Assembly (NCBI GenBank): GCA_964016885.1
Contig: OZ024742.1
Span: forward strand, 108,190,001 to 108,254,000
Direction of reading: 5' to 3'
DNA: 64,000 nt
Source of the DNA: Eledone cirrhosa
Lineage: Eukaryota
Made by a program: the position numbers and the translations under genes. The notes under the pieces are model-generated. The model worked only from the letters and a program-made list of their open reading frames with translations. It had not been told where the DNA came from and did not search any database. Shown in pieces: positions 10,481-61,718 of the stretch (position 1 is the first letter of the stretch; each line of letters starts with the position of its first letter).

Positions 10481-11061
10481 ATTTAGAGAGGTTTCCCAGT
10501 GCTCCTCGCTATATTGTTATCTTTTGCTCTGGTAGCGGTTCGTTTCTCCACCCCTTTCGCCTGCATGTTGTTCTATGTGGTCTTAGATGTGTGCATTACG
10601 TGCTTGTGTGTTTTTTCTATTTCTTTTTTTTCCTTACCCTTTCCTTTGTATATATTATATTTGTTTGTGTTTTCGTTCTGTAACCATTATATTAAATTTT
10701 TATACAAATGAGTTTAAAAAAGAAAGAGTTAAACTGTGTTGTAGATATATAAATAAAAAGTTGTACTTCATTTTACTCTCGAACGCTGCTATCATGACTG
10801 CATGACTCTATGTGTGTGTTTGTGTAAGTGTATATGTGTGAATGTGTGTTTGTGTAAATGTATATCTGTGAATGTATGTGTTTGTGTGAAAGTATGTGTA
10901 TTTGTGTGAATGTATGTCCGTGAGCATGTATTCTTGTAAGCTTGTCTGTTTGCGCGATTATAGTTATATACTCATACATATGGATGTATGTATATGCACA
11001 TACACACACGCTCACACATACACATACGCGTCAATGTGTTGAAAAAAATCTTAATCTCTGC

Positions 11062-11109
<48 letters not shown>

Positions 11110-11123
11110 GCCCCCCCCCCCCT

Positions 11124-11184
<61 letters not shown>

Positions 11185-11899
11185 TTATCTGTCACATAAT
11201 CACTCTATCTATCTGTCTCTCTGTTATCACACAATCTCTCTTTCTCGCTCTGTCTATATATAAGGTAGTTGAAGTGGCGGCAATATACCGGAAGTGTAGA
11301 AAATCCAACTTATTTTACTAATTGGATTAAAAGATATAAATGGACGCTGTCCTGCATTCTTCCCTTTATTATAGAATAGACTAGAAGAATGGACCGGCAT
11401 TGCTCGGGATTCTAAACATAGATTGGCATGTTTATCCCTCCTTTCTGAAACACTACAGAGAAGTATGGAATACCTCGGCCTTGCGACCGTCGAATAGCAG
11501 ATTCCACTGACGATTCATTCGCCCGCCTTGTTCTTTTTCTTGCCGCTTTCGCAGTGTTTCGGCCAATGGAGTATCTCTTCCTTCGAGACATGAGCTAAAA
11601 GCAGGACGAGTACACTAAGACTAACTGGTAGAGTAAGGAGTAAACTCGCCAGTGATGCATGTGATTTACGAACCGATGACTATGTAATTACTAAGCCATG
11701 AGTGCCGTCTTAACCGGTGCGCGACGTTATAGCTATGTATCTTTCTGCATTACGACATTATGAAAACATTGACTTCGCTATCTGTGTGTCTGTGTATATA
11801 TATGTATATATAGTGTGTGTGTGTATGTATATATATAGTGTGCATATATTATATATATATATATAATAAAATGTGGAGAGGAAGCACACGAGTAACGAT

Positions 11900-16244: not shown

Positions 16245-17159
16245 GCATATTGGAAAATTCCTCAATATATAGTATGCTCTTTACATACGCCAGAATGTTT
16301 GGAGCAAGAGAACAATCGCCCATACAAACTCCAGTACGTGGTTGCTACTTTATTTTATCAATAACTGAAGGATTAAAGGCAAAGACAAACTCAGAACGGC
16401 ATATATATATATACTAGCTGAGCTACCCGGTGATACCCGGGTATTTTATGAAAGTTACAATATATTTGGCACACATTACAAAATATTTGACCATTCAAGG
16501 GCATGACAAAAAACATACATTTAGATTTTTTTATTTATCCTTTTCTTTGCTCAATCTGAACCTCTGAAATTCATACAACATGTAAAGAATATTTTAAAAA
16601 CCATAAATAAAATAATAAAATAAATCTAGCATTGGTTTATGATTAAATGAAGCATTTACCTACTCATTTCTGTAATTAGGGGAAAGTGCATTTAAATTTG
16701 TACACTGTAGCTTTCACCAATCTTTGCCTTTATGGCAGTAGGATCTTGTTTGAGGGAGATTTGTTTTCTATTTCTATTAGCTATACCAACAGTTATAGTG
16801 GCTCACATGACATAGATAGATACATACGCACACATGTATGTGTGTAAGACAGTTGTTTGTGATTTGAAATGGATTTTGCTAATATTTCTAGTAGATCGAG
16901 TTATCACATAGAACCATTCCTTTTTGCTTCATACATATATACATACCTGAGAAAGTAAGGTGGAATTTGAAGGTAATTTGGCTGTTATTTCTACCCAACA
17001 AAGTCCTCTCTTATACTACTTTATATAGAGAGGTACCCGAGAATGCTTGCATATTCTTCCAAAGTAACAGCATGCAGGAAATTTGCGGCTTCAGAATTCC
17101 TTGCAAACTACATGACTAAGGAATTAGGATCTGTGTGTATTGTCATTGAATGAGGAATT

Positions 17160-20100
17160 ACGACATTGCTCATTCCAAAGCCTCTGGATAAACAAATTCT
17201 TGGTTTTGCCTTGTGGTGCCACAATGAAGTGACAATCAGGGTTCCCAACCCTTGTTGTGCCAACATAGAGTTGACCATGCGAAAAGACAAGATCTGCCAG
17301 ATTCAACCCAACGACTTTCAATGATTGCCCTTGAGATTTATTAATGGTCATGGCAAAACTGAGCCTGATCGGAAATTGAAGTCTTTGAAATTCAAATGGC
17401 AAATCAGTTGGCTTCAGAGGTATTCTGGGAATGAAACAATTGTCACCAGCACATTTTCCTGACATGATTGCAACTTCTAGAACATTGGACATCATATTTT
17501 TGATGATAGGTCTTGTGCCATTACAAAGTTTTGGAGGATCCAGATTGCGAAGTAGAATAACCGATGCTCCAAGCTTCAGTATCAGGTTGTATGGAGGAAT
17601 TCGCGCTTGTTCAAGACTGTTCAAAAATTCAGTTGGTTAGTTTACAATCTGGTCTTGAGAAGTGATTATGTCAACTGATTTGTAGCATATTTTCTCTCCC
17701 GGTAACATCTCCAGCAGCATTCTGTTGATTTCTTTCACAGCAACATTTTTAGGTGTTAAGATTGCTCATTCGCAGAGCCATTTCGGATCACATTGCCTGG
17801 TCTGAATGTTTGGAAATACTCTGGCAATCAGTTCTTGTTCTGTGTCAAGGATATGGCCAAATGACAACCCAATATGGTCATTGGAGTCCTTTTCAAGAAG
17901 TCCATTTCCCAATTTAAGTAGTTGGATGGCAAACTCACTGACACCTTCGTCACCAGTTAAGTGCACTCGCATGTTGGTTGTAAGGCTCAGCAGCTGAAAG
18001 TGGGGCCAGAGATAGGATGTTTTCAGACAGGCATTGACCTGATCAGCTCGAGTCTCTCGAAGAATTACAGGCAGAGTTTGTCTGAAATCACCAGCAAGAA
18101 CCATTGTCACTCCTCCCATTATGCAACTATTTTCTCTCAGATCTCTTATCGTCCGGTCCAAAGCTTCAATTGCTCCTTTATGGCTCATAGTAACTTCATC
18201 CCGAATTATCATTTTGCATGTTTGCAGAAGCTTGCCCTTGGGTGAGTTCTTCTTGATGTTGCAAAAAGATTGTTTATGCCGTGAGATCTATGGGCAGCTT
18301 AAACATGGAGTGTGCAGTTCTTCCTCCATCCCGAAGTGTTGCTGCAAGGGCAATATGTTGCTTTTGGCGAACTTTTGCAAGCAGAAGGTTTATGAGGAAT
18401 GTCTTGCCTGTGCCAGCAGGAGCATCGATGAAGAAAAGTCCTCCCTTGTCATTTTGAACGTTTTCGATAATGTTGTGGTAGGCGTATTTCTGGTCATCCA
18501 TCAATAGAGGTTCATCTTCATCCACAAACTTACGCAATGCTTGAATGTCGAACTTTGTCTCCTGAAAAATGTCTTGTGCTACCTCCATTTCTTCATCTGG
18601 CTCTGGCATCCCGCAGTTAACTAATGTGCTATTCATTGCCTGAACTCGATGGGACAGGTCACAGAGAGCTTGATTGTAAATTCTGGGGGTATATTCCATA
18701 TACATATTGCCATGATGTCTTCGGGCTAGGTGTAGATAATCGTCCGACATATTGTTTTTGTACTGCTGCTAGAGTAGATGAGCTTCATCAATTCCACATG
18801 CTGTGAGCATAATAGCAAATAATTGTCTTATTTGACTGGCTACTTGAGTGATTGCTGCTTCTTCTAAGCACTTCTTCCAGTGTCCATTGTCATGCAGGAG
18901 TCTATGCTGTTTACATGCTTCTTGGTATGTTGCGCACTCCCTTCCTCTGAAGCGTCTAAGATCCTCAAATGACGTTGGTCCTCGAACAATATGCAGAAGT
19001 AGCCGTAAATAAAAACATTCTCTGTTGTTGGGATGGACATTGTAAACACGCCTAATAGCATCACTTGACTTGACTTCATGACCTTCCACTAAATGACCCT
19101 GCTTTCTTCGATTCCAGGTCTTGCAATTGGTCCAGGTGTAGTATGTTGGGACTTCAGCATATAGGAAGGATCGAGCAAATTCATCATTCTGGCAGAGTTT
19201 AAAGAAAGCAGTTAGTGTGGTGTCATGTGATGCTTGTGCCAACTGATGAGCAGTGATCTCAGCGAAGTACACTCTCTGTCCATTTTCAAGATGGACTGCG
19301 AGGTTTACCACTGTTGGGTGGCGTTGGTGGATATCGAACCCAAAGATTCACCAGATAGCTTCATTGCTGGAGATGTATTGACCTGTTTGTTACCGTTTGA
19401 CCTCATCCAGCTCACCATCATTGAGTTCTTTGTCAGTAATAAAGGTAGCCATGTCACTGCCCTTGTTGATATATTTTGTGACATATAGGATTGGCTTCAC
19501 GGAGCTGCAATACTCAACATTGATATGAGCTTTTAAAAGTTTACACAACAATTTGTTGTGTGGGACGACCCACTGATTGTTTATGGTCAGCTCCTCTCCT
19601 CGAACTGTTAGGCTTGCACTATTGCCTCCATGTTCTGGTCTACGCCTACGATAAATGGGGTATCCATTATTGTCAGTCCGAGTTTCCCGAATAAAAGCTC
19701 TAGGATAATGTTGGCTGCATTTTTTATCTTTCATGCAGGGAGAGGCTGGATTGATGACTCCACATGGACCATGAATGAGTTTGGACTTGATGATTTCAAA
19801 GAGCTTTGGATCACCACCTTTATCAGGCAACTCTGCTGAAATGATCTTATCAACATCATCTGGTCTTATATTCTCCTTGCACCAGATTAGTGTGTGAGAG
19901 TGAGGAAGACCTCTCTTCTGTTGGTGAAGAATTTCTTGTAAATTTATGACTATGTAGAACTGCAATCCACCATGGACATTGGTACATCTTTGTTGTGCCT
20001 GTGTTTCATTTCCACCATGAAGTAAACCTGCACAAATTTGTGAGGTTCCTGTGAAAGTGGCAGAAGGCCACCCATTAAGTGGTAACACTGTCCCTGAATT

Positions 20101-20710
20101 TTATAAGTTGTACAGAATTTAAAATCAGTGACATTCCTGTCAGCCCCAAAAGATGTCATTTGAAAGGCAGAATTATATTTTATGATGTATTTAATGAAGT
20201 GTCGTGCTTCTGGTGTATCCTGAAGGAGCAGATTCTTCAGAAATTCAGGAGGTTCTTGTATTGTTTTAAGGCTCACTTTGCCTTTTGAGCAGTGTAGACT
20301 TGGTGTTTCTGCTGCCCACTTCTTGGCACCACAATACTGGCAGCATTTGTTCATTTTCCCAATGTTGATTTGTGGATTACTGCTGTAGTCCTTTTGAGGG
20401 TCATAAGAAAAAGAACCCATCAGCCAGTTCATTTTCCTTGTGGCTTGTTCTCCTGCTGGGGCAGTAGAACGATGTGCTTGATTATCATTTCGTCTGATTT
20501 GCTGCTGTTCCTTAATTTGTTGTTCTCGTGTAGCAGCAGTCCTTTGTTCCCTTTCATCCAAACGGTGTGCTCGTGCTAAAGCTGTTTGGGCTCTGTTAGC
20601 AGCTAGACGGGCATGCCGAACTTCTTCACTTTCTTCAGATCGCTGTGTTTTCTTTCTCTTAGCCTCTGAAGATGACCTTCCATATAATGATCTGGAACGT
20701 TTTCTAGGCA
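17160..20710 (-). pseudogene. Helitron RepHel (HUH Rep plus PIF1-family SF1 helicase), multiple stops/frameshifts and an internal deletion
   Basis: C..CGA.KW..E, YNSAFQMTSFG, QKRGLPHSH (HUH motif), YVTKYINKG, DAPAGTGKT (Walker A), DEVTM, GDFRQTLPV, NMRV, FAMTINKSQGQSL, FSHGQLYV. Confidence 0.95.
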
Positions 20711-21004
20711 TTTGAAGTGATATTATTACACACCACACGATAAAATAAAGTACCAGTAATGCATTGGAATAATTGCTGGCCTTATGCCAAAAGTAGAAAC
20801 AATTATTACACACCACACTCTTTTCGAAATAGAAACAACTCAGTAAAGTTGTTTTAAATGATCTCTTTATACACTAGGTGTAATTTATTTTAGACATATG
20901 TAGAAAATATTGGGATTTCAGATTGTATTAAAAAAAACGACAAACACTACAAAATAAAATATTTTCTGTTAATTCAAATAAAAATGGAAAATAATATATT
21001 CAAA

Positions 21005-25470: not shown

Positions 25471-28075
25471 AATGTTACAACCGCTCAACACATGTTACAA
25501 CCACACAACACATGTTACAACCGCTCAACACATGTTACAACCACACAACACATGTTACAACCGCTCAACACATGTTACAATCGCACAACACAAGTTACAA
25601 CCACACAACACATGTTACAACCGCTCAACACATGTTACAACCACACAACACATGTTACAACCACACAACACATGTTACAACCGCTCAACACATGTTACAA
25701 CCACACAACACATGTTACAACCACACAACACATGTTACAACCGCTCAACACATGTTACAACCGCTCAACACATGTTACAACCGCTCAACATATGTTACAA
25801 CCACACAACACATGTTACAACCACTCAACACATGTTACAACCACACAACACATGTTACAACCGCTCAACACATGTTACAACCACACAACACATGTTACAA
25901 CCGCTCAACACATGTTACAACCACACAACACATGTTACAAGCGCTCAACACATGTTACAACCGCTCAACACATGTTACAACCGCGCAACACATGTTACAA
26001 CCACACAACACATGTTACAACCGCTCAACACATGTTACAACCACACAACACATGTTACAACCGCTCAACACATGTTACAACCGCTCAACACATGTTACAA
26101 CCGCTCAACACATGTTACAACCGCTCAACACATGTTACAACCACACAACACATGTTACAACCGCTCAACACATGTTACAACCACACAACACATGTTACAA
26201 CCGCTCAACACATGTTACAACCACACAACACATGTTACAACCGCTCAACACATGTTACAACCGCTCAACACATGTTACAACCGCGCAACACATGTTACAA
26301 CCACACAACACATGTTACAACCACACAACACATGTTACAACCACACAACACATGTTACAACCGCTCAACACATGTTACAACCACACAACACATGTTACAA
26401 CCGCTCAACACATGTTACAACCACACAACACATGTTACAACCGCTCAACACATGTTACAACCGCACAACACATGTTACAACCGCTCAACACATGTTACAA
26501 CCGCTCAACACATGTTACAACCGCTCAACACATGTTACAACCACACAACACATGTTACAACCGCTCAACAGATGGTACAACCACACAACACATGTTACAA
26601 CCGCTCAACACATGTTACAACCACACAACACATGTTACAACCGCTCAACACATGTTACAACCGCTGAACACATGTTACAACCACACAACACATGTTACAA
26701 CCGCACAACACATGTTACAACCGCTCAACACATGTTACAACCGCGCAACACATGTTACAACCACACAACCAACACATGTTACAACCACACAACACATGTT
26801 ACAACCACACAACACATGTTACAACCGCTCAACACATGTTACAACCGCTCAACACATGTTACAACCGCTCAACACATGTTACAACCACACAACACATGTT
26901 ACAACCGCTCAACACATGTTACAACCACACAACACATGTTACAACAGCTCAACACATGTTACAACCACACAACACATGTTACCACCGCTCAACACATGTT
27001 ACAACCGCTCAACACATGTTACAACCACACAACACATGTTACAACCGCTCAACACATGTTACAACCACACAACACATGTTACAACCGCTCAACACATGTT
27101 ACAACCGCACAACACATGTTACAACCGCTCAACACATGTTACAACCGCTCAACACATGTTACAACCGCTCAACACATGTTACAACCACACAACACATGTT
27201 ACAACCGCTTAACACATGTTACAACCGCTCAACACATGTTACAACCGCTCAACACATGTTACAACCACAAAACACATGTTATAACCGCTCAACACATGTT
27301 ACAACCACACAACACATGTTACAACCGCTCAACACATGTTACAACCACACAACACATGTTACAACCGCTCAACACATGTTACAACCGCTCAACACATGTT
27401 ACAACCGCTCAACACATGTTACAACCACACAACACATGTTACAACAACACAACACATGTTACAACCGCTCAACACATGTTACAACCGCTCAACACATGTT
27501 ACAACCGCTCAACACATGTTACAACCGCTCAACACATGTTACAACCACACAACACATGTTACAACCACACAACACATGTTACAACCACACAACACATGTT
27601 ACAACCGCTCAACACATGTTACAACCACACAACACATGTTACAACCGCTCAACACATGTTACAACCGCTCAACACATGTTACAACCACACAACACATGTT
27701 ACAACCGCTCAACACATGTTACAACCGCTCAACACATGTTACAACCGCTCAACACATGTTACAACCGCTCAACACATGTTACAACCACACAACACATGTT
27801 ACAACCACACAACACATGTTACAACCACACAACACATGTTACAACCGCTCAACACATGTTACAACCACACAACACATGTTACAACCACACAACACATGTT
27901 ACAACCACACAACACATGTTACAACCACACAACACATGTTACAACCACACAACACATGTTACAACCGCTCAACACATGTTACAACCGCTCAACACATGTT
28001 ACAACCACACAACACATGTTACAACCGCTCAACACATGTTACAACCGCTCAACACATGTTACAACCGCGCAACAC
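25471..28075. repeat. 20-bp minisatellite, about 130 units, two interspersed variants AACACATGTTACAACC-GCT-C and -ACA-C
   Basis: Seen directly. One 4-bp phase shift near 26767. Confidence 0.98.
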
Positions 28076-34943: not shown

Positions 34944-35009
<66 letters not shown>

Positions 35010-36053
35010 ACACATACATATATATATACACACATACACACACACATACATACACACATACATACACACACACATATATATATATACACACACACACATA
35101 CATACACACATATATATATATATGTAAATATATATATATATATACATACATAACATACACACACACACACTCACACACACATATATATATATATATAGTA
35201 TAAAGAAAACGAAAAATCAGTGATGCATCTGGACTTAATTTATTGCGTGTTACAATTGTTTCGCCGGCAGGTAGCTCGAGACATGGTCCTTGTATGGATC
35301 TGGCTGATTCTACTTCTGCGGGTGTTTCGTCTTGAACAAATTTTATCACTGGGTGTTATCATAACAAAACACCCTAAAAAAAACTACTTCCACTCTTGTC
35401 ATGCCATTGGCTGTTTTTATTCCACGTTATCGCAAGTTCTGGTCAGTATCTGCTGCCACACGGTTAATCAGCCATTTTCCGTCCGACACATTTCTATGGA
35501 GTCATGCTGGGTTCAGTATTTCACACGTCTGTTCACACTTCAGAGTAAGCACCCACACATACTAATATGCACACATAAACACACACACATGCAGACACAT
35601 ACATATGCATGCACACACGTACGCCTACATGCGCAGACACACATACATACATAATAGTATATATACACACACACTGTCCCTCACTTCCACGGACCCAGTC
35701 ACACCCACTTGTAGATAAATATCGCCACCAGCCTTATGACGGCTGCTTACTTCGCGCCCTGTATCAGGTGGGATAAGCATGGCCTACTCAATCATACACA
35801 TACATACATATGCGCGCACACACCCAACTTTATATACATTTGTATATATATATATATACACACACTCATACACACACATATATACATACACACATACATA
35901 CACATACATACATATACACACACATGTGCATACACATATATTTACACATATATACATACATACACATATATATATACATATATATATACATATATATACT
36001 CACACATGCCTACACACACATACAAATACACATACGTACACAAACAATACATA

Positions 36054-36187
<134 letters not shown>

Positions 36188-36499
36188 AAAAACGACAACT
36201 TAACATGCATACGCACATCCACATATATACATACATATACCTACGCATATGTCGATATACATACACCTACAGATGCATACGCACACGTGTTGCCACATGC
36301 ATACACCTGCACATATGCATATCTGCCTACACACACATGTGCTTCCACATATATAAACAAAACCGTAAATTATTAGTTAAAAATTCATTATGCATTAAAA
36401 AAAAAATATACCATAAAATAAGGGTAAATTACCGTAACATAAAAAATATACAATATAATATAATATACAATATGATATATATATATACTCTCTCTCTCC

Positions 36500-36542
<43 letters not shown>

Positions 36543-36784
36543 CATGTACACAGATTCATACATGCATATACGGATATATACGGATATATATAAAGGATAT
36601 GTGATAAAGTAATACAACAAGAATAATAGTAATAATATAAAGCATATATATTCCATGTATAATCATTCGCACACATTCCTATGAGATGCACATAAACACA
36701 TACATGTATGCACAAATACTCATACACCCATATAGAGGCCCATATATGCATGCACCCGCACCCACACATATATCTATATATCTA

Positions 36785-36897
<113 letters not shown>

Positions 36898-36999
36898 GTA
36901 TATATATATATATGCATACACACATATATATACACTCACTTACCCACCCACACACACTTACTCATACGTGGCAATACGCACATACGCACACATACATAG

Positions 37000-37097
<98 letters not shown>

Positions 37098-37969
37098 GGT
37101 GTCTGCCAACTCGTTTTCGAGTACGGCGACTACTTTATATCCATGTAGGAGAAGCCCTACCGATGCGCTGAACGAGTGTGACTTTTTAGTCCAGCTAGCG
37201 GCTTGAAAACTCTGGTACAAACACTACACATGTGACAATTATTGACACATAGTGCTGGGCCAATGGTACCATGTGACGACAAGTGCAGAGAGATCTGCAG
37301 ATATAAAGCAATGCCTGTGCCGTGAAGCTTTTATAGTGACCAAAGGCACTGCACAAAGCCAGTCCCACTCTCTTAACCAAGATGATATTTACCAAAAAGA
37401 AGAACAAGTCAACATCATTGGATACCATCAGGGTTGATATATATATATATATATATTCATATATACACACATATATACATATACACACGTACACCCACAT
37501 TCCGCCACATATGTATATACATGCACATGTCTGCACATACACGCGCGTATAAGCTCATGCACACACGCACCCATGCCCATACACACACCCCACCACCCAC
37601 CCACATATATATGTATATACATACACATCTACACACACACACGTACATATACCCACGCACAGGTCCACACATAAAAACACGCGAATATAAACACAATATG
37701 ATAATAAGATAAAATAAATAAATAAATTTACAATATTTTAGGGTACATTAAAATCTGTATGTAACTGCATAAATAGGTACAAGAAAAAAAGGGGTAAATA
37801 AAAAACAAAAAACAAAAAAAAACGGTTAAAATAAAAAACGTGGGGAGGGGGGGTCGAGGGTACAGGAGAAGGTGCTTGTGTCCATGTGATATACGACACA
37901 CAGGTATTATGAGATGCAAACTTGTGTCCGTGTATAGAACAGGTAACAGTACAGCACAATAATAGAACA

Positions 37970-38150
37970 ATAATTGTTTCTACTTTAGGCACAAGGCCAG
38001 CAATTACCCAGTGCATTACTGGTACTTTATTTTATCTACCCCGTAAGGATGAAAGGCAAAGTCAACCTCGGCGGGATTTGAACTCAGATCGTAAAGGGAC
38101 GTAACTATGCTGGAAAGCATGGCGTCCGGCCCTCTACCGATACTGCTAAT
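37970..38150 (-). mobile_element. SINE family A inserted only in the left arm of the PLE inverted repeat
   Basis: The right arm has the empty site gtgattattactatcattattgtgctg at 41830-41856. Confidence 0.8.
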
Positions 38151-38516
38151 GATAGTAATAATCACTGTTCCAAAGTGGACCAGGTGGCACCGTTTTTGGG
38201 GTGTGCTGTTCTATATGTTTAGGGCAAGGGCCGGGCGGCACTGGGCCCCGTGTCATCCGGTCCCGGCCATGCGGTGTATCTTCCAATGTTGTGTGCCCGG
38301 TTAAGTGCGAACTTGGTTTACATATGTTTGCCTCACACGTTGGACACCGTCATCATGGCATGGTGTCAAGTCCCCTAATCCCGTTGGGCCAATCGGGTCT
38401 GTGCGTATTCGTTCCCATTACCCCTGCCTGCGTCACCCGGCGGATTCCATGCTGCAAATGTGCATCTTCTCTGGTGTCTGCATGTCATGATAATTTCAGA
38501 CTTCCGGTTGACGGCG

Positions 38517-38882
38517 TCATCCTTCAGTTTGACTATCCTCATGGCCCTCGTGTAGGCACAATCGGCACTTTCTACTTCCGGCCAAATATGCCCTCGCGTG
38601 GCGAACGATACTCCATTCCCGGGCGTATAGAGTGCCGTGGTCTTTCAGGTCCCACACCAGGTCCGCTAACCTAGTGGAGTGCCTTTTGCTACGGTCCCTG
38701 AAGGAATTCGAGTAATTATACATCCGCGATTTAAAGGTCGTGGATGTTGTGCCGATGTAGGTTCGATGCGGGTTTTGGGTTGTAACCACACACTTGTATA
38801 TTAAGTCTTTAATCAAGCATTTTCCCTGTAGGGGGCACCGGGTGCCCGCTCTACAGTTGCAAGTGCCCGCTCTACAATGCAT
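38517..38882 (-). pseudogene. Inverted duplicate of the PLE GIY-YIG endonuclease domain
   Basis: CNCRAGTRCPLQGKCL..LIYKC..YIGTT...FKSR..CRLCLHE, near-identical to ORF 40841-41548. Confidence 0.9.
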
Positions 38883-38884
38883 AA

Positions 38885-41548
38885 CTGGAGGAATTTGAAA
38901 ACTGTATAGTCAACATAGTTCGTAACATCAAGTTCCATAGGAATAGTGCACGACGGACAAAATATCTCAAAAGACTCGGATCCACCATCAAAAGCATGGA
39001 AAAATACCAGGATTTACTCGTGCCCTCGGACAAAACTGGTAACGTATACATGCTTGACCGTTTTACATATAATGACTGACTCGGGAAAGAGATTAGGAAA
39101 AACTATAAGACCACAGGAGAGACAAATTTAGATTATATTAACGCCACGACAAAAAGTATACTGACGGGGACCAGGACTAGAGGATAGGACCGAGGTATAT
39201 GTACCTACAAAACAACGGATATCCATTAAGGACCATAAATTAGACTTTAAAACTAAACTACCGGTTAGGTTAATAGCACCCTCCAAATCCGACCTAGGAA
39301 GGACCAGTAAGAATATTATAGATAGGATAATACCGGTACTTAGAAACAAAACTAAGCTTAACCTATGGACCTCCACTAAAGAGGTAATTGACTGGTTCTC
39401 GATAATAGTTGACAAACACCAAGTAAATTTTATTCAGTTAGAGATAGATAGCTACTACGCGTCAGTATCTCCGATACTAGTCAATAAGGCCTTCATAAGC
39501 GCCATGGCCAGATCTAGCCTCACCAGGGACGAGACCAACCTCATAGTAGCAGCGCCAGAAAGACGCTAATTAGTTTCGAAGACAAGTTATGGGAGAGGAG
39601 GGACAGACCCGACAGTTTCGATATCACCATGGGGTCAAGTGACTCGGCATAGGTGACCGACTTTGTGGGGATATATCTCATCCATAGGTTGACGGAGGAG
39701 ATCCCGGGGATCGGAGGTGGAATATACGGAGACGACGCACTTTTCACCTTCCGTTCCCTTAACCCCAGTCACATGGAGCGCATATCGCATTTTTTTAAAC
39801 AACACGGCTTATCCGTGACAATAGATACTAGCACTAATACGATCAATTTCCTGGACGTTACCTTGGAAATGAATACGGCGTCCACAGACCGTACCATAAG
39901 CCCAACGAAAACCTGCAATATGTGAACAGGCAATCGAATCACCCTAAGTCAGTCATAGAAGCCATAGTTAAAGGGGTATCCAAACGTGTATCGTCGAACG
40001 CAGAAGTGTTTAAACAGCACGCCAAATATTATAATGAGGCACTGCGCAGGGCCGGTTACAAAGACACCATAATATATACCCCGGATAGAGTAGAGCCTAA
40101 TGATAAGGCGTGCAGAAATGCCTATAGCGAGGGCGCCTCCTTAGGTAGAAGAATTGACCCGGTAGCAGTATCCAGGAACACAAATAACAACACAACTAGC
40201 ATTAATGACACAGGACCGACCCGAGGTAGGACTAAGGCACCGATAGGAGCCAGACCACCCAGTACGCGGAGGCATGGGACTGGCATGCACACTGCATACT
40301 CCGCGGCAACTGGGACCTTCGACAGGACTTCGACAAATAGGAACGGGGTACACGCCACGGAGCACGACCAGCCTGGTTCTAGTGCTACAGCACCGACAAC
40401 AGCATCACATAGACGTAAGGGGAATAGACGTATAGATGACCACATAGAACGACGTAACTTTATAACTGTAGAGCATAACCACGACGAACGTAGCGGGCAA
40501 ATAGACAGGGACAACACACGAGACGAAATTGTGGTTGGGCCGAGCACTGGACGGACATCGAGCCCTGGACACACCAACAAGAATCCACGCACACAAAGGA
40601 ACAGATCTAAGACCGTTACCTTGTTCAATGCGCCTTACTCCAAATATGTACGCACCAACGTGCCAGGACTTTTCTTCCCAGCGCTGGATGAGTGCTTTCC
40701 GCCGACAAACAAGTACCACAAAATCTTCAACCGCCATACGGTGAAATTTTCCTTCTCCACGGCGCCGAATATGGCCGACTACATGGCTAAAACTAACACG
40801 GTGAAGATGGCGCACACTGGCAGTCAACCGCATCGACAGAGTGACCGTATTTCGGAGCCCGGAGAACCACCTAGGGACCTGCCCTAAACCCGGCCCCGAG
40901 GCGACCAGAGCGCCCGCGGAGGGCGATATGGTCCAACATCGAGAGGGAAATAGTGGCATGGGGGAACAAACGGTGTTGGCAGTACAACACCCTGAGAACC
41001 TTGAGAGGGTCATAACAGATCGGTACCCGGACATCGGACGCACGAGAACTGACAACAGAACTTGCAACTGTAGAACGGGCACCCGGTTCCCCCTACAGGG
41101 AAAATGCTTGATGAAAGACTTAATATACAAGTGTGTGGTTACAACCCAAAATGTGCATCGAACCTTCATCGGCGCAACATCCACGCCCTTTAAATCGCGG
41201 ATGTATAATCACACGAATTCCTTCAGGGACCGTAACAAGAGCCACTCCACTAGGTTAACGGACCTGGTCTGGGACCTGAAAGACCACGGCACTCCGTACG
41301 CCCTGGAATGGAGTATCGTTCGCCACGCGAGGGCATATTCGGCCGGAAGTAGAAAGTGCCGATTGTGCCTACACGAGGCCATGGAGATAGTCAGACTAAA
41401 GGATGACGCCGTCAACCTGAAGTCTGAAATTATCTTGACATGCAGACATCAGAGAAGATGCACATTTGCAGCAAGGAATCCGCCGGGTGACGCAGGCAGG
41501 GGGAATGGGAACGAGTACGCACAGACCCGATTGGCCCAACGCGATTAG
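38885..41548 (+). pseudogene. Penelope-like pol (RT plus C-terminal GIY-YIG), disrupted
   Basis: DKTGN, KDHK..F...RLI.PSKSDLG, ITMGS.DSA..D.VGIY, GIYGDDAL, INFLDVTL, SNHP, FN.PYS, IFNRHTVK.S.S..PN, CNC..PL.G.C, LIY..FIG.T..FK.R, CRLCL.E, C.H. Confidence 0.92.
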
Positions 41549-42330
41549 GGGACTTGACACCATGCCATGATGACGATGTCCGACCCGTGAGGCAAACATA
41601 TGTAAATCAGGTTCGCTCTTGACCGGGCACACAGCATTGGAAGATACACTGCATGGGCCGGGACCGACTGACACGGGGCCCAGAGCCGCCCGATCCTGTG
41701 CCCTAAACATATAGAACAGCACACCCCAACGACGGTGCGATGCCCCATGGCGACCGGGACGGGTGTCACATTGAATGTGTACCCCGTCAGTCGTGACTAT
41801 ATACTCTCCACCTGGTCCACTTTGGAACAGTGATTATTACTATCATTATTGTGCTGTTACTGTTACCTGTTCTATACACGGACACAAGTTTGCATCTCAT
41901 AATACCTGTGTGTCGTATATCACATGGACACAGGCACCTTCTCCTGTACCCCCCCCCCGTTTTTGTATTTTACCCGTTTTATTTTTTTTATTTTACCCCT
42001 TTTTCTCTTGTACCTATTTATGCAGTTACATACAGATTTTAATGTACCCTAAAATATTGTAAATTTATTTATTTATTTTATTTTATTATCATATTGTGTT
42101 TATATTCGCGGGTTTTTGTGTGTGGACCTGTGCGTGGGTATATGTACGTGTGTGTGTGTTGATGTGTATGTATATACATATATACGTGGGTGGGTGCTGG
42201 GGTGTGTGTATGGGCATGGGTGCGTGTGTGCATGAGCTTATACGCGCGTGCATGTGCAGACATTTGCATGTATGTACATATGTGGCGGAATGTGGGTGTA
42301 TGTGTTTATATGTATATATGTGTGTATATA

Positions 42331-42391
<61 letters not shown>

Positions 42392-42447
42392 GACGTAAAA
42401 TAAGAAAATTTTAAAAATTTAAAATTAACTTACTTACTAAAATTTTC

Positions 42448-42529
42448 ACTCCAACTAATTAGTTTCTGTAATGGGATAAAGATAGTTACGCAATGTAACC
42501 ATCGAGAATTAATTACGTCATCAGGGAGT
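42448..42529 (-). ncRNA. Type I hammerhead ribozyme, intact core (unit A)
   Basis: actcc CTGATGA cgtaat..[gatggttac-attgc-gtaactatc]..attaca GAAA ctaattag TT ggagt. Confidence 0.85.
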
Positions 42530-42985
42530 CTATTCTCAGCTAAGTCTCCAGGCAATGCGCGGACACTAGGGACTCATATAAAAATAATAATTCGGTGGAT
42601 GGAACAGCTAGCGGGGAATGAATTCCATAACACTGAAAAAGTTCACTGTCTCTGGTCAAGTGGCAGATTCTAAAGAATCAATCACGTGACACTGAGGCTA
42701 GTCAGAAGGAGTGGGATGGTATTATGACGAGAGCCTACTACTACTACAATGAATTAGTAGTGGATTTGGCAAGTTTGCTCAACAAATAAATAATTTGGAG
42801 ATAAATATAGAGAATTAGTATATTTACCAACATATGCGTACAGATGTACACTAATGCTAGCAAATACATAAGTTATGTCATAGTACCTAGGTGGTTCAAT
42901 GCAGGGGGATGCAGAACAATTATATGAAAGACGTAAAATAAGAAAATTTTAAAAATTAAAAATTAACTTACTTACTAAAATTTTC

Positions 42986-43067
42986 ACTCCAACTAATTAG
43001 TTTCTGTAATGGGATAAAGATAGTTACGCAATGTAACCATCGAGAATTTATTACGTCATCAGGGAGT
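42986..43067 (-). ncRNA. Type I hammerhead ribozyme, intact core (unit B)
   Basis: Same motif as unit A, 538 bp away. Confidence 0.85.
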
Positions 43068-43641
43068 CTATTCTCAGCTACGTCTCCAGGCAATGCGCGG
43101 ACACTAGGGACTCATATAAAAATAATAATTCGGTGGATGGAACAGCTAGCGGGGACTAAATTCCATAGCACTGAAAAGGTTCACTGTCTCTGGTCACGTG
43201 GCAGATTCTAAAGAATCAATCACGTGACACTGAGGCTAGTCAGAAAAAGTGGGATGGTATTATGACAAGAGCCAACTACTACTATTATGAATTAGTAGTG
43301 GATTTGGCAAGTTTGCTCAACAAATAAATAATTTGGAGATAAATATAGAGAATTAGTATATTTACCAACATATACGTAGAGATGTACACTAATGCTACTT
43401 GCCAAATCCACTACTAATTCATGGTAGTAGTAGTAGGCTCTTGTAATAATACCATCCCACTCCTTCTGACTAGCCTCAGTGTCACGTGATTGATTCTTTA
43501 GAATCTGCCACTTGACCAGAGACAGTGAACCTTTTCAGTGCTATGGAATTCATTCCCCGCTAGCTGTTCCATCCACCGAATTATTATTTTTATATGAGTC
43601 CCTAGTGTCCGCGCATTGCCTGGAGACTTAGCTGAGAATAG

Positions 43642-43723
43642 ACTCCCTGATGACGTAATGAATTCTCGATGGTTACATTGCGTAACTATCTTTATCCCAT
43701 TACATAAACTAATTAGTTGGAGT
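43642..43723 (+). ncRNA. Hammerhead copy with GAAA>TAAA (unit C, predicted inactive)
   Basis: actcc CTGATGA...attaca TAAA ctaattag TT ggagt. Confidence 0.75.
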
Positions 43724-44179
43724 GAAAATTTTAGTAAGTAAGTTAATTTTTAATTTTTAAAATTTTCTTATTTTACGTCTTTCATATAATTGCTCTGCAT
43801 CCCCCTGCATTGAACCACCTAGGTACTATAACATAACTTATGTATTTGCTAGCATTAGTGTACATCTGTACGCATATGTTGGTAAATATACTAATTCTCT
43901 ATATTTATCTCCAAATTATTTATTTGTTGAGCAAACTTGCCAAATCCACTACTAATTCATTGTAGTAGTAGTAGGCTCTTGTCATAATACCATCCCACTC
44001 CTTTTGACTAGCCTCAGTGTCACGTGATTGATTCTTTAGAATCTGCCACTTGACCAGAGACAGTGAACTTTTTCAGTGCTATGGAATTCATTCCCCGCTA
44101 GCTGTTCCATCCACCGAATTATTATTTTTATATGAGTCCCTAGTATCCGCGCATTGCCTGGAGACTTAGCTGAGAATAG

Positions 44180-44261
44180 ACTCCCTGGTGACGTAATGAA
44201 TTCTCGATGGTTAGATTGCGTAACTATCTTTATCCCATTACATAAACTAATTAGTTGGAGT
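44180..44261 (+). ncRNA. Hammerhead copy with CTGGTGA and TAAA (unit D, predicted inactive)
   Basis: actcc CTGGTGA...attaca TAAA ctaattag TT ggagt. Confidence 0.7.
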
Positions 44262-44429
44262 GAAAATTTTAGTAAGTAAGTTAATTTTTAATTTTTAAAA
44301 TTTTCTTATTTTACGTCTTTCATATAATTGTTCTGCATCCCCTGCATTGAACCACCTAGGTACTATGACATAACTTATGTATTTGCTAGCATTAGTGTAC
44401 ATCTGTACGCATATGTTGGTAAATATACT

Positions 44430-44463
<34 letters not shown>

Positions 44464-44743
44464 ATATATATATATATATATATATATATCACTTATATTG
44501 CTCACTATAAAAGCTTTACGGCACAGGCATTGCTTTATATCTGGAGATCTCTCTGCACTTGTCATCACATGGTACCATTGGCCCAGCAGTATGTGTCAAT
44601 AATTGTCACAAGTGTAGTGTTTGTACCAGAGTTTTCAAGTCGTTGGCTGGACTAAAAAGTCTCACTCGTTCAGCGCATCGGTAGGGGTTCTCCTACAGCG
44701 ATGTAAAGTAGTGGCCGTACTCGAAAACGAGTTGGCAACCACC

Positions 44744-44777
<34 letters not shown>

Positions 44778-45110
44778 CTATGTATGTGTGCGTATGTGCG
44801 TGTAGCCACATATGAGTAGGTGTGTGTTTGTGGGTGGGTAAGTGTGTGTATATATATAGATATATGTGTGGGTGGGGGTGCGGGTGCATGCATATGTGGG
44901 CCTCTATATGTGTGTACGTGTATTTGTGCATACATGTATATGTTTATGTGCATCTCATAGGAATGTGTGCGGATTATTATATATGGAATATATATGCTTT
45001 TTATTATTACTATTATTCTTTTTGTATTACTTTATCACAAATCCTTTATATATATCCGTATATGTACGTATGAATCTGTGTATATGTGTGTGTGTGTATG
45101 TGTATGTGTG

Positions 45111-45556
<446 letters not shown>

Positions 45557-45866
45557 ATATGGGGATATATATATAACACATTGTATATTATATTACATTG
45601 TATATGTTTTATGTTACGGTAATTTACCGTTATTTTATGGTATATTGTTTTTTTATTCCATAGTGTATTTTTAATTTTTAATTTACGGTTTTGTTTATAT
45701 ATGTATATGTGGAAGCACATGTGTGTGTAGGCATATATGCATATGGTCAGGTGTATGCATATGGCAACACGTGTGCGTATGCATGTGTAGATGTATGTTT
45801 ATGCGTAGTTATATGTATGTATATATGTGGATGTGCCTATGCATATTAAGTTGTCGGTTTTTATTG

Positions 45867-45985
<119 letters not shown>

Positions 45986-46182
45986 CTATGTACGTGTGTA
46001 TGTATCGTTTGTGTACGTATGTGTTTTTGTATGTATGTGTATTTGTATGTATGTGTGGGCATGTGTGAGTATATATATGTATATATATATGTGTATGTAT
46101 ATATGTGTAAATATATGTGTATGCACATGTGTGTGTATATGTATGTGTATGTATGTGTGTATGTATATATGTGTGTGTATGA

Positions 46183-46238
<56 letters not shown>

Positions 46239-46783
46239 GTATATAAGGTTGGGCGTATGTATGTGTGCGCGCGTATGTATGTATATATGTGTATGTTTGA
46301 GTAGGCCATGCTTATCCCACCTGATACAAGGCGCGAAGTAAGCAGCCGTGATAAGGCTTGTGGCGATATGTATCTACAAGTGGGTGTGACCGGGTCCGTG
46401 GAAGTGAGGGAGAGACTGTGTGTGTATGTTTACTTTTATGTATGTATGTGGGGGGTGTGTGTCTGTGCATGTAGGCGTACGTGTGTGTATGCATAAATAT
46501 GTATCTGTCTGCATGTGCGTGTGTTTATGTGTGTATATTATTATGTGTGGGTGCTTACTCAGAAGTGTGAACAGACGTGTGAAATACTGAACCCAGCATG
46601 ACTCCATAGAAATGTGTCGGACGGAAAATGGCTGATTAACCGTGTGGCAGCAGATACTGACCAGAACTTGTGATGATGTGGAGTTAAAACAGCCAATGGC
46701 ATGACAAGAGTGGAACTAGGCTTTTTTTAGGGTGTTTTTTTATGATAACACCCAGTGATAAAATTTGCTCCAGACGAAACACC

Positions 46784-46874
46784 CGTGTCTGAAAGAACCA
46801 GCAGAAGTAGAATCAGCCAGATCCATACAAGGACCATGTCTCGAGCTACCTGCCGGCGAAACAGTTGTAACACG
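46784..46874 (+). ncRNA. Hammerhead motif with long stem II at the 3' end of the large PLE
   Basis: cgtgt CTGAAAGA accagcag...ctgccggc GAAA cagttg TA acacg, followed by aataaa. The core has one extra A. The left-arm copy (~35245-35320) has lost the CTGA core by deletion. Confidence 0.65.
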
Positions 46875-47003
46875 CAATAAATTAAGTCCAGATGCATCAC
46901 TGATTTTTCGTTTTCTTTATACTATCTACACTCTACTCTGCCGAATATCGAGTGCTAATTTTGACATACCGCCTATGAAAGCACCATAGCTACCATAATA
47001 CAC

Positions 47004-47710
<707 letters not shown>

Positions 47711-51363: not shown

Positions 51364-51418
51364 ACTGCCTGAACAGGTCACAGCCAAAGATGGCTGTCAC
51401 TGAAATATATATAGCAGT
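51364..51418 (+). ncRNA. Decayed hammerhead (CTGAACA core), family of 47755-47813
   Basis: actgc CTGAACA ggtc-acagcca-aaga-tggctgt-cact GAAA tatata TA gcagt. Stem II covaries with the 47.8-kb copy (atagcca/tggctat vs acagcca/tggctgt). Confidence 0.7.
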
Positions 51419-57731: not shown

Positions 57732-58635
57732 TCCAGGTTATCAATAATGTAGTGATAATATATCGTCACGTTAGAGATGAACAGCGTACGTGTAGGTTTG
57801 CTCAACGAGTATAAATTATATTCCGGAGAAAATGTAGAAAAGATGAATATAAAATGAAAGTGCTTTTTTTTAAAAAGGAATTTATTAGGTATTGACATAT
57901 GTTTCTGTAACAGACGGAATACCTATGTATCGCTGCTTGCGTAATCATATAATGTTAGCAAGTATTCGATAGCAAATGTATAATCAGTTGTCACTCCTTC
58001 AGAGATATTGGATAAATTGGAAAAAGTCAGAAAAATTGAAGTATTTATATTAGTTGTAATAAAGGAAGAAGAGAGGGGATAGTATATAACAGATGGCAAT
58101 TCAATTTACTGGTAAACAAGTATATAAAGGGTTTCTAATGAGAATACAATGATTATATGGTTTATTTTATCTAAATAAGAATTTTTGGGAGTGCCTATTT
58201 TAATCTATACTTGACCAATTGAACAATGGACAGGGCTGGTCGTTTGGTGTAGTAGTATTAATTATAAAGTGTCAATTAAGGAAGAGGGAGATTTTTCACT
58301 GCTACTGAATAACAACAATGCTGGTAGCCTGCTGGTATATGCATTAGGGAATTAAATTAAGAAATCTCATTTTATCTATAGCAGTTTATATTAAATGGTA
58401 AAGAATAGAAGAGTTGATAGAATTAAGACTAATAGAGAATGTTAATATGTATTTTGACAATCAAACGGAGATGGAGACAGGCGTTCAATCCTGGTAGTGT
58501 TTGTAATATGAAAATGTTTTTACAGTATAAGGATCGCTCTATTCTGGTCCTTCAGGTTGAAGGATGGTGTAGCTGGTGTTAAGGGTTGCGTTCTATCGTC
58601 AATACAAAGTTTTATTGTTCTATCGTCAATACAAA

Positions 58636-60615
58636 GAATTATTGTTAGAGCAGACAAAACATCAAACGTATATACCATGGATGTGGACACTTACAATAAC
58701 TTCATCCGTAAGGAATTGCATAAAAAATACAAGAAAACTAATGAAGCTACACTAAAAAATATCAACAACTCGGCATGTGAAATTGTTAAAAAACTTTGTA
58801 TTGACGATAGAACGCAACCCTTAACACCAGCTACACCATCCTTCAACCTGAAGGACCACAAGGTAAACTTCGATACTGACCCTAAAATTAGACTTATATG
58901 CCGCTCTAAATCTGATATAGGCAAAATTAGCAGATATATACTAGACAGAATTATCCCCCAAGTTAAGGCTAAAGTAGATATTAAACTATGGGGTAACACC
59001 CATGAGGCTATAAGATGGTTTAATAGCATTACTGATAAGAAAAAAAATCAAAATTTATTCAGTTCGATATTGATGAATATTATTCCTCAATTTCACCTGA
59101 TACTCTACATGAAGCTCTTTCGTTCGCTAAGGCTAATTCCGACCTTACGGATGCTGAAATTAATATTATTATGGAAGCGAGGAAAACTATTGTTAAATTT
59201 GATGATAGCTACTGGGTTCGCAAAGATAGACCTTCTAATTTTTATATTACTATGGGTTCCAATGATTCGGCGGAAGTAACTGATCTTGTGGGAATTTATA
59301 TCACCCACAGACTACAAGGACAATTCAAGGATCTCCACGGTGGAATCTACCGTGACGATGCGCTCCTATTAGTTAAGCATATGAATAACCAGAATTTAGA
59401 AAGGATGCGTAAAAATATCAGAAAGCTTTTTAAGGAACTAGGATTAAATATTACATTTGAATATAACCTCAAAGAGGTTAATTTCCTTGATGTTACTTTG
59501 AATCTCAATACAGAAACGATTAAACCGTTCCATAAACTAAATGAGAACCTTAAATATGTAAATACGAGTTCTACCCACCCACCCTCTATTATTAAATCCA
59601 TCCCTAGAAATATTTCCCTTAGAATCTCCCGCCTGTCGTTCAACCAGCAAACCTTCAAAGAACATGCCGAATATTATGATGATGCACTTAGGAAGGCTGG
59701 ACACCTAGATAATATAGAGTATATAGTCGACGATCACCAGAACACCCAACATAAATCTCATAGAGGTAGAAATAGCATAGAATCACCACCATACATACAC
59801 TACCGCAATAGACACACTAATAGACGCACGCCACCAAACAGAAGGCGATGTAAAGAGTATATATGGTACAACCCGGTCTATAACAACTCTATTAAAACCA
59901 ATCTACCCTCACAAATCTTTCGATTAGTTAAAAAACACTTTCCAACATCACATAAATATAATAAAATCTTAAACCCTAACACTATTCGACTTTCATATTC
60001 AACCGCCCCTAATATTGAACAACATATAAAAAAGCTTAACGCAAAACGGTTGTATAAACGCCTTCCAACACATAACAATACACGTAAAACATCAGCTATA
60101 ACATCACAAAACAACAAAAAACATCCCGTCCTGCCTAAGCAACCTCATCAACCCATCCATGCCAATACAACAACGCAAAATTATAACTGTAACTGTGTCC
60201 AACCAGGAATGTGTCCGTTGAACAATCAGTGTCTTGAACGCAACATCATATACAAATGTACTATCGAATCGGATATCCAGAAGTGGTACTATGTGGGGTC
60301 TACAGCCACCTCCTTCAAATCTCGCCTTTATAGACATCGTTACTCGATAAAACATGAAAACCAGCGTTATGTAACAACACTCGTAGACAAGGCTTGGCAG
60401 CTGCGCGAAAATAACCAACAATTTAACCTAAAATGGGATATAATAGCACTACCCCTCCATATACCCACGGACAAGAATTTTGTAAATTGTGTAATATAGA
60501 ATTATTTTGTATTATGAAATCCAATAATATTTTATTAAATAACAGAATAGAGCGATCCTTATACTGTAACCATCGCTTAAAAACATTTTCATATTACAAA
60601 CACTACCAGGATTGA
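58636..60615 (+). pseudogene. Penelope-like pol (RT plus GIY-YIG), 5'-truncated, two frameshifts
   Basis: IIVRADKTSN, LKDHKVNF..P.IRLI...KSDIGKIS, ITMGSNDSAEVTDLVG, GIYRDDAL, VNFLDVTL, WYNPVY, CNC..CPL...C, IIY..YYVGST..FK.R, CKLC..E, CNHR. Frameshifts near the A-run at ~59040 and near 60445. Confidence 0.93.
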
Positions 60616-61091
60616 ACGCCTGTCTCCATCTCCGTTTGATTGTCAAAATACATATTAACATTCTCTATTAGTCTTAATTCTATCAACTCTTCTATTCTTT
60701 ACCATTTAATATAAACTGCTATAGATAAAATGAGATTTCTTAATTTAATTCCCTAATGCATATACCAGCAGGCTACCAGCATTGTTGTTATTCAGTAGCA
60801 GTGAAAATCTCCCTCTTCCTTAATTGACACTTTATAATTAATACTACTACACCAAACGACCAGCCCTGTCCATTGTTCAATTGGTCAAGTATAGATTAAA
60901 ATAGGCACTCCCAAAAATTCTTATTTAGATAAAATAAACCATATAATCATTGTATTCTCATTAGAAACCCTTTATATACTTGTTTACCAGTAAATTGAAT
61001 TGCCATCTGTTATATACTATCCCCTCTCTTCTTCCTTTATTACAACTAATATAAATACTTCAATTTTTCTGACTTTTTCCAATTTATCCAA

Positions 61092-61210
61092 TATCTCTGA
61101 AGGAGTGACAACTGATTATACATTTGCTATCGAATATTGCTAACATTATATGATTACGCAAGCAGCGATACATAGGTATTCCGTCTGTTACAGAAACATA
61201 TGTCAATACC
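61092..61210 (+). ncRNA. Atypical hammerhead-like motif in the PLE pseudo-LTR (inverted copy ~57888-58007)
   Basis: CTGAAGG a gtgaca...(~75 nt)...tgttac a GAAA catatg TC aatacc taataaa. Stem I is weak. Confidence 0.45.
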
Positions 61211-61253
61211 TAATAAATTCCTTTTAAAAAAAAAGCACTTTCATTTTATATTC

Positions 61254-61290
<37 letters not shown>

Positions 61291-61439
61291 AAGGCGGGTA
61301 AAATTCCCGAGATCCATGGACGAGTTCTCTCCAGCGGTCTCTGTCCCTCATTATCGCTGCCATATCCTGCATCTCCAACAGACCAGTGTCTGTCCTTAGG
61401 GCATCAACATGGACACACTAGAAGAGGAAGACCAAGGTT

Positions 61440-61532
<93 letters not shown>

Positions 61533-61677
61533 CGGGTAAAATTCCCGAGATCCATGGACGAGTTCTCTCCAGCGGTCTCTGTCCCTCATTATCGCTGCCA
61601 TATCCTGCATCTCCAACAGACCAGTGTCTGTCCTTAGGGCATCAACATGGACACACTAGAAGAGGAAGACCAAGGTT

Positions 61678-61683
<6 letters not shown>
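61291..61683 (-). mobile_element. Two identical ~153-bp RTE-like LINE 3' ends, each with a small 5' inversion, separated by (TA)n
   Basis: Minus strand VDALRTDTGLLEMQDMAAIMRDRDRWRELV; plus strand HGHTRRGRPRLTY. Units at 61291-61443 and 61529-61683. Confidence 0.75.

Positions 61684-61718
<35 letters not shown>

Follow-up and report, generated by a model that had tools for sequence, protein, structure and literature searches.

Organization of the locus

The window, that is the whole 64-kb stretch of DNA analyzed here, carries at 42383-44437 an inverted arm pair joined at 43397, in which 42383-43312 and 43397-44326 are 98% complementary. The period is exactly 538 bp in both arms, and the locus is made up of two complete units, two incomplete ones and two terminal pieces. 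The original prediction had described four tandem copies of a 538-bp unit; the unit is real and its period exact, and the copies are arranged as two head-to-head arms of about 1.9 units each. The junctions of the insert lie within (TA)n, so that no target-site duplication is readable; in non-LTR retrozymes such duplications, when present, exceed 4 bp. The insert itself lies in an old Hydra-type PLE. The features are the following, with monomer positions numbered from the predicted cut:

39165-47007, plus strand: old host Hydra-type PLE containing the retrozyme, with a broken ORF (39165-41548) encoding CxCX5C, a long 3' region, and ends near 46928 and 47007
42307-42387, no strand: left (TA)n target tract
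42383-43397, minus strand: arm 1, made of a 5'-truncated unit (132-538), a full unit (1-538) and a terminal piece (1-70) reaching the first fixed end at +70, its boundary being blurred by TA
42448-42529, minus strand: hammerhead A, every core base present, predicted cut 42453/42452
42453-42990, minus strand: monomer bounded by two predicted cleavage sites, 538 nt, GC 35.5%, no ORF
42986-43067, minus strand: hammerhead B, every core base present, predicted cut 42991/42990
43397-44437, plus strand: arm 2, head-to-head to arm 1, made of a truncated unit (217-538), a full unit (1-538) and a terminal piece (1 to about 182) reaching the second fixed end at about +182 to +184
43642-43723, plus strand: hammerhead C, GAAA changed to TAAA, G12 position changed
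44180-44261, plus strand: hammerhead D, TAAA and CTGGTGA, predicted inactive
44433-44489, no strand: right tract, (TC)n then (TA)n

The host PLE has its own HHR-like motif at 46784-46874. In 12 of its 19 relatives, the sequence up to about 42330-42390 joins directly to that from 44743-44849 on, which confirms the earlier proposal that the element landed in the 3' region of a PLE. The segment 44490-44743 is a separate insert, present too in the inverted arm of the host, in which it extends about 94 bp further on the retrozyme-facing side. The host PLE forms a large head-to-head structure (35000-47152) with arms 82-93% identical and a 3' region of more than 5 kb.

Each unit contains a type I hammerhead

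A motif scan found four type I hammerhead (HHR) motifs in the locus, at 42529-42448(-), 43067-42986(-), 43642-43723(+) and 44180-44261(+), in agreement with the predicted one motif per unit. Each of them shows stem I ACTCC/GGAGT, CTGATGA (CTGGTGA in D), a branched stem II, GAAA (TAAA in C and D), CTAATTAG and a GUU site. As announced, A and B keep all core bases and their predicted cuts bound exactly the interval 42453-42990; C and D are mutated, the TAAA change affecting G12, in hammerhead numbering a residue with a catalytic role. The TAAA variant of a family 25-mer has two matches genome-wide, C and D only.

Every HHR of the locus contains two extra bases: one follows A9, before G10.1, and the other is an A inserted between C11.1 and G12, found in 24/24 aligned family members. 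A base at the first of these positions characterizes PLE hammerheads according to the cited passages of PMC4209133. The Infernal check that had been advised gave a negative result, as the Rfam models returned no hammerhead match in 42300-44500 even at E<=10; in the whole window nothing reached the gathering score, and below the cut-off hairpin and miRNA models only were seen. This is probably due to the 50-nt branched stem II and to the two extra core-adjacent bases. In 24 members hand-picked for diversity, 94.7% of the cells of the HHR structure are paired, with 45 compensatory cells in 5 pairs, against 35-48% for slid controls. The covariation exceeds that of 500/500 shuffles, a control that ignores relatedness, which inflates the result. 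The HHR core is near-invariant, and stem II covaries across subfamilies that are 76-90% identical.

A 12-nt palindrome spans stem III and its flanks; its self-duplex is predicted at -10.8 kcal/mol, and the hammerhead folded as a monomer is predicted to lie 2.5 kcal/mol above the local MFE. Thus, it is plausible from these models that the HHR cleaves as a dimer via its palindromic stem III. The monomer RNA as a whole is predicted to be strongly self-paired (fold z -6.4; 59% paired as a circle).

A dispersed, high-copy and non-coding family

The family comprises about 11,000-12,000 HHR copies in the genome. An exact 19-mer gave 12,089 matches (control 0), a full-core pattern 10,941 (control 29), with 99/100 of the listed matches resembling the retrozyme family, and a young exact 25-mer 969 genome-wide (control 0). 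The monomer search returned at least 171 matches on many contigs, with arrays of up to 6.4 units, from 40 scored of 2843 candidates. The element is therefore not confined to a single locus but forms, as predicted, dispersed tandem arrays with permuted ends. Two or more consecutive complete HHRs are expected of such elements; A and B provide such a pair in the window, and one array at C1:199.06 Mb contains six HHRs.

Natural monomers measure 507-571 bp (n=110), and 12 representative ones are 76-90% identical to the window unit. The window monomer had been considered unusually long for its class; this does not hold, since consensus lengths of 51-972 bp, with a mean of 650 bp in ray-finned fishes, are given in the cited part of 10.64898/2026.07.22.740005. 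The claim of an ORF-less unit stands, the longest ATG frame on the circularized 538-bp monomer being 41 aa; lack of coding capacity and a GC content below 50% (here 35.5%) are both features by which non-LTR retrozymes are defined.

Same-strand HHR spacings fall at 460-579 bp in 111/116 cases and none is near 3 kb, in a table where some loci are counted twice and most loci are just 3-7 kb long. PLE frames of several families flank retrozyme insertions; in the 112 insertions and 77 additional loci inspected, none of them extends a unit on the same strand. The absence of an ORF, the HHR spacings and the lack of a same-strand PLE frame in the approximately 190 insertions sampled indicate that the unit is a stand-alone non-coding element and not the end of a coding one. 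The possibility raised beforehand, that the unit would be the pLTR of a coding PLE, found no such copy in this sample, and the proposed class of a non-autonomous HHR retrozyme moved by a PLE agrees with the dispersal, the lack of ORF and the PLE-type insertion ends described below. The element is likely an animal non-LTR retrozyme, a known class of which this family would be a further member. A plant LTR retrozyme, with type III HHRs in its LTRs, does not agree with the type I topology and the tandem units. Among the titles and abstract openings searched, which covered few subscription papers, none concerned cephalopod retrozymes, a retrozyme-Hydra pair or truncation at an HHR cut; supplements may list such families.

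Insertions end at two fixed positions, one per arm

In 112 insertions (104 non-redundant loci), 166/185 arms end either at +64-76 or at +178-209 after the cut, and 157 of these 166 fixed ends run into (TA)4. Head-to-head arms are found in 69/112 insertions: 50 combine the two kinds of end, in 19 one end is damaged or unusual, and 0 have two ends alike (3/112, clusters of other geometry, were excluded from this count). Neither kind of end is favored in the longer arm (25 vs 25). The pattern was replicated in 77 further loci, mostly from other subfamilies, after four low-identity clusters and two complex geometries had been dropped: 33/45 are mixed, 11 have an unusual end and one is alike, namely L220, whose ends at 61 and 80 were scored alike through a wide bin.

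These insertions show features of PLE mobilization, namely 5' truncation, an inverted head-to-head copy, a one-sided tail and an AT-rich target. An inverted 5'-truncated copy with a one-sided tail is the pattern of EN+ PLEs in the passages cited (PMC3846280; PMC8557442), and two internal RT start sites were reported to bound the 'tail' of a lizard PLE in vitro (PMC11167929, in part). The second fixed end is often extended by (TC)n grown from the terminal TCTCT of the element (window 44433-44460 and many loci), an extension not seen at the first fixed end of the retrozyme.

5' truncations accumulate just after the predicted cut

Among the pattern-sampled arms, 18/106 have their 5' end at +1..+15 (16/106 without two overlap artefacts, for 3 expected, P 4.5e-8), and the hazard there is 0.134 for a mean of 0.029. 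The replication set, which was not hand-curated, gave a weaker signal, with 10/121 arms beginning at +1..+15 (P 0.002). The pooled count of 33/178 combines 15/72 top-hit and 18/106 pattern-sampled arms, and was split because score-selected loci favor near-full units; three arms (L047, L076+ and L089+) were dropped by eye as overlap artefacts. In the pooled sample, 9/178 5' ends lie at +1..+3, and the six positions preceding the cut have none, the nearest upstream end being at 531. Most 5' stops fall at +5..+14, inside an AT palindrome that could favor inversion joints, and a second hot bin at 391-405 reaches a hazard of 0.096. By comparison, hazards are 0.01-0.02 both at the more AT-rich +16..+60 and at the 3' edge of the strongest hairpin (151-180).

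That many cDNAs stop at the cut is expected if the templates have a 5' end there. The truncations thus suggest, from DNA, that templates were cleaved in vivo; a transcription start site would give a similar 5'-end pattern. A twin-priming model, in which two cDNAs begun on a single circle would each stop where the other had started, was rejected as no 5'-end excess is found at 61-80 or 181-200. In published systems, the lizard PLE did not need its HHR in vitro, and RNA-seq reads ending at the cut were absent (PMC11167929, in the passages cited), and of nine predicted Xenopus retrozyme dimers 8/9 showed no cleavage in vitro and 1/9 was cleaved (10.64898/2026.07.22.740005, in part). The 5' junctions of four loci (L012, L020, L023 and L070) contain short repeats of the first ~20 nt after the cut, resembling stuttering template jumps at an RNA 5' end.

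Whole units would require copying across the junction

The two start sites are located immediately 3' of the cut, so that the inheritance of whole units requires copying across a junction. Unit divergence amounts to 2.8% inside an arm, 3.6% from one arm to the other and 8.4% from one insertion to another, and the low divergence within insertions holds even for those 10-18% from the family majority, so both arms were copied from the same or closely related templates. Three insertions (L010, L061 and L063) are homogeneous with array-wide variants, which fits one unit copied repeatedly, as in the rolling copying of a monomer circle proposed at the outset. That proposal does not account for the rest: the window's four units are mosaic at other sites, and 105/484 non-CpG differences inside insertions are alleles common elsewhere, 12.6% being expected under uniform mutation. 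The five-unit ABAB array at L062:3414-6098, where units 2 and 4 have 7 common variants, points to a dimer-period template or to a later dimer duplication. Shared alleles, the L062 alternation and mosaic units rather call for multimers, dimer circles, template switches or later gene conversion. The TAAA common to C and D was not retained as proof of rolling copying, since the four units are mosaic elsewhere. Circular RNA is documented for the retrozyme class (PMC7229834, in part); for this family, our analysis leaves a re-ligated circle as template at even odds.

A young Hydra-type PLE shares a motif with the retrozyme ends

The window contains a copy of a young Hydra-type PLE family that we labeled PLE-Y, and the retrozyme monomer contains, just after its two ends, a motif also found in PLE-Y:

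42773-42801, minus strand: internal copy (monomer 190-218) of the motif TCTCC..GTTGAGC, located about 6 nt 3' from the second fixed end
42894-42915, minus strand: internal copy (monomer 76-97) of the motif TCTGC..ATTGAAC, located about 6 nt 3' from the first fixed end
57733-61260, plus strand: PLE-Y copy, with an inverted arm (57733-58546) ending at +166 and a main arm ending at +62

PLE-Y is young: its 88 scored matches have 91-100% protein identity, and several of them retain open frames of 741-783 aa. An intact tandem monomer (L156:3268-6382) measures 3115 bp and encodes a 765-aa ORF with RWK and CxCX5C, DKT being present in the window copy; the best database relatives of this protein are <=43% identical. 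Judged by RWK, DKT, CxCX5C and its (TA)n target, PLE-Y would belong to the Hydra clade, an assignment based on motifs and not on a tree. A Pfam scan of seven PLE frames returned nothing at the cut-off. The PLE-Y monomer ends at +62 and +168 after the GUC of a hammerhead-like motif, which has the extra bases of the retrozyme, including the extra A, and a poorly paired stem I. Its two-ended copies are mixed in 13/15 cases and alike in 0 (38 loci). Directly after the PLE-Y end of the window lie two near-identical 238-bp units (61260-61716), each a short sequence flanked by (TA)n.

TCT[CG]C begins about 6 nt after all four ends, two per element, and RTTGARC follows 5-20 nt further. The PLE-Y monomer has two occurrences of this motif, at 64 and 172, and no others; in retrozyme monomers, it is confined to the two end positions in 104/110 and is never antisense. 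It was defined after inspecting the four sites, so its shuffle rate of 0.008 per PLE monomer overstates the significance. At the second end the longest word common to both elements is 9 nt, reached by 44/1000 shuffles, and the whole-end alignments are weak, 7/500 and 20/300 shuffles being equally good. Tail lengths differ (about 106 nt in PLE-Y vs 114 nt in the retrozyme), and there is no extended DNA homology, the best blastn match having E ~1e-4 over 46-59 nt. Provided that a PLE mobilizes the retrozyme, we lean towards PLE-Y as its partner, with a confidence limited by the post-hoc motif and by the weak overall DNA similarity; three of the PLE families of the genome were compared for the motif.

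The host PLE was rejected as partner: its closest relatives show about 76-85% protein identity and are mostly broken, its HHR is different, and the motif is absent from the part examined, which extends little beyond the second end. Given its age and the absence of the motif where examined, the landing in this host looks like (TA)n targeting and not like a partnership. In a single case, L082:2931-5752, a Hydra-type PLE from a different family, itself 5'-truncated, meets a retrozyme arm head-to-head with no TA in between; the joint holds a 14-nt inverted piece of this PLE, a possible chimeric co-insertion. The latter family was also rejected as partner, as it gave 1 stray motif match in 23 loci and such a direct joint occurs in 1/40 single-arm insertions.

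Proposed mechanism and alternatives

Taken together, we consider it probable that this high-copy non-coding HHR family is a non-LTR retrozyme likely copied into (TA)n by the RT-endonuclease of a Hydra-type PLE, most likely of the PLE-Y family. The array would be transcribed, and the HHR, probably dimeric via the 12-nt palindromic stem III, would cut part of the RNA. The PLE protein would nick both strands of a TA tract, and reverse transcription would start at two internal RNA sites, +70 and about +184, one per target strand, each start site being marked by TCT[CG]C..RTTGARC just downstream. The two cDNAs would then be joined head-to-head at their 5' ends. A cut linear monomer would transmit just 70 or 184 nt, and whole units would pass by crossing the junction, through a re-ligated circle, an uncut multimer or a template jump.

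One alternative concerns the role of the ribozyme. The family could be a non-autonomous PLE derivative made from uncut read-through or internally promoted transcripts, with an HHR that is weak or a passive relic, no circle, and a 5' pile-up due to a transcription start or to the AT palindrome. The HHR that a PLE can do without in vitro (PMC11167929, as far as cited), the atypical HHR core, the 5' stops mostly at +5..+14, the mosaic arrays and the tandem monomers formed by PLE-Y despite its poorly paired stem I all fit this reading, which we nevertheless find unlikely: the core is near-invariant, stem II covaries across subfamilies 76-90% identical, and the 5'-end excess is sharply edged at the cut while hazards stay at 0.01-0.02 over +16..+60 and the hairpin at 151-180. 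A second alternative concerns the identity of the partner. The class could be right and the enzyme come from another PLE family, the shared motif resulting from common ancestry of the ends or from chance. The genome has several Hydra-type families, PLE-Y and the retrozyme have no extended DNA homology, and the L082 arm is joined to a different family; against this, the motif stands at equal offset after both ends in both elements and is absent from the host and L082 families where examined, and PLE-Y is young with open frames of 741-783 aa. We therefore hold another partner to be rather doubtful, if a little less so than a relic HHR.

The remaining explanation, in which pLTR ends of a coding PLE, truncated at 5', were amplified locally as satellite DNA to give the units, draws on the PLE-like architecture of the ends and on local pLTR amplification proposed in the literature. 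It is largely refuted and very improbable, since 111/116 HHR spacings are of unit size with none near 3 kb, the sequence beyond +190 runs into the non-coding monomer, no same-strand PLE frame continues the unit (112 insertions and 77 loci), and multi-unit arrays bear fresh PLE-type ends.

Within the favored retrozyme-PLE reading, a more specific version can be put forward tentatively, as a possibility short of even odds: a matched retrozyme-helper pair may be readable from DNA, in which a ribozyme-cut, re-ligated circle (a monomer, sometimes a dimer) would mimic the two RT-start signals of one Hydra PLE and be primed one per strand of a TA break, the truncations being a fossil of in vivo cleavage. 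If true, the pair would connect animal retrozymes directly to a specific PLE, a link so far missing, and would provide a sequence code for internal initiation by PLEs. The mobilization of retrozymes and the cellular role of PLE hammerheads are described as open in the cited parts of PMC7229834, PMC8557442, PMC11167929 and 10.64898/2026.07.22.740005. The family offers a candidate enzyme that is intact, together with a short template, a mutable motif, and predictions for two start sites and a 5' end, all accessible to an assay published for a PLE. The rule of one start site per arm, found in both the retrozyme and PLE-Y, constrains models of PLE integration.

Relation to known systems

Like the animal non-LTR retrozymes of Cervera & de la Pena 2020 (PMC7229834) and of Li, Clavereau & Pollet 2026 (10.64898/2026.07.22.740005), in the passages cited, the family consists of dispersed low-GC non-coding tandems with one type I HHR per unit, thousands of copies, a length within 51-972 bp and a proposed PLE dependence. 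It differs from them in that 538 bp exceeds the 170-400 nt of the RNAs shown experimentally there, and in its PLE-type HHR, whose branched stem II is long and in which an additional A precedes GAAA. The passages of these two sources make no mention of (TA)n targeting, inverted arms, a pair of fixed ends, a shared start motif or truncation at the cut; the second ties retrozymes to PLE pLTRs by co-occurrence and homology.

With EN+ PLE insertions (PMC3846280; PMC8557442; PMC11167929, each in part), the family shares head-to-head arms, 5' truncation, two 3' ends downstream of the HHR and an AT-rich target; unlike these PLEs, it has no ORF and its tail measures about 114 nt vs 30-40. Its one end per arm (50/69 mixed, 0 alike) contrasts with the lizard enzyme, for which the passages of PMC11167929 give no strand difference in start site in vitro. 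PLE-Y resembles the Hydra clade PLEs as outlined by Craig et al. 2021 (PMC8557442) in its RWK, DKT, CxCX5C, single ORF, (TA)n targets and HHR-like motif; the retrozyme has target and geometry in common with this clade but is non-coding.

The A9/G10.1 extra base, the G10.1-C11.1 pair, the 5-bp stem I and the small palindromic stem III suited to dimers are those of the PLE hammerhead variants of Cervera & de la Pena 2014 (PMC4209133), while the further extra A between C11.1 and G12 is absent from the passages of that paper and the 50-nt branched stem II also sets this HHR apart. Finally, Chlamys non-autonomous PLEs such as MRC1 (PMC8557442, in part) are likewise non-coding elements mobilized by a PLE, which bear pLTRs and form multicopy insertions in head-to-tail order; these have the 3'-end sequence of their partner, whereas the retrozyme has just a short motif in common with PLE-Y.

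Other features of the window

A second, short hammerhead family with stem I ACTGC/GCAGT and stem III TATATA is found at 47812-47757(-) and 51364-51418(+), with partial inverted pieces at 47267-47376. The copy at 47812 ends about 55 nt after the cut in (TA)n, and the family is also present in L009 and L230. A third type I hammerhead, with stem I AGATTC/GAATCT, lies at 3225-3175(-), and a similar one flanks L047. Broken frames at 17124-20873(-) putatively resemble a Helitron Rep/helicase, and 25472-28075 is a 20-bp minisatellite of 130 copies with 92% matches.
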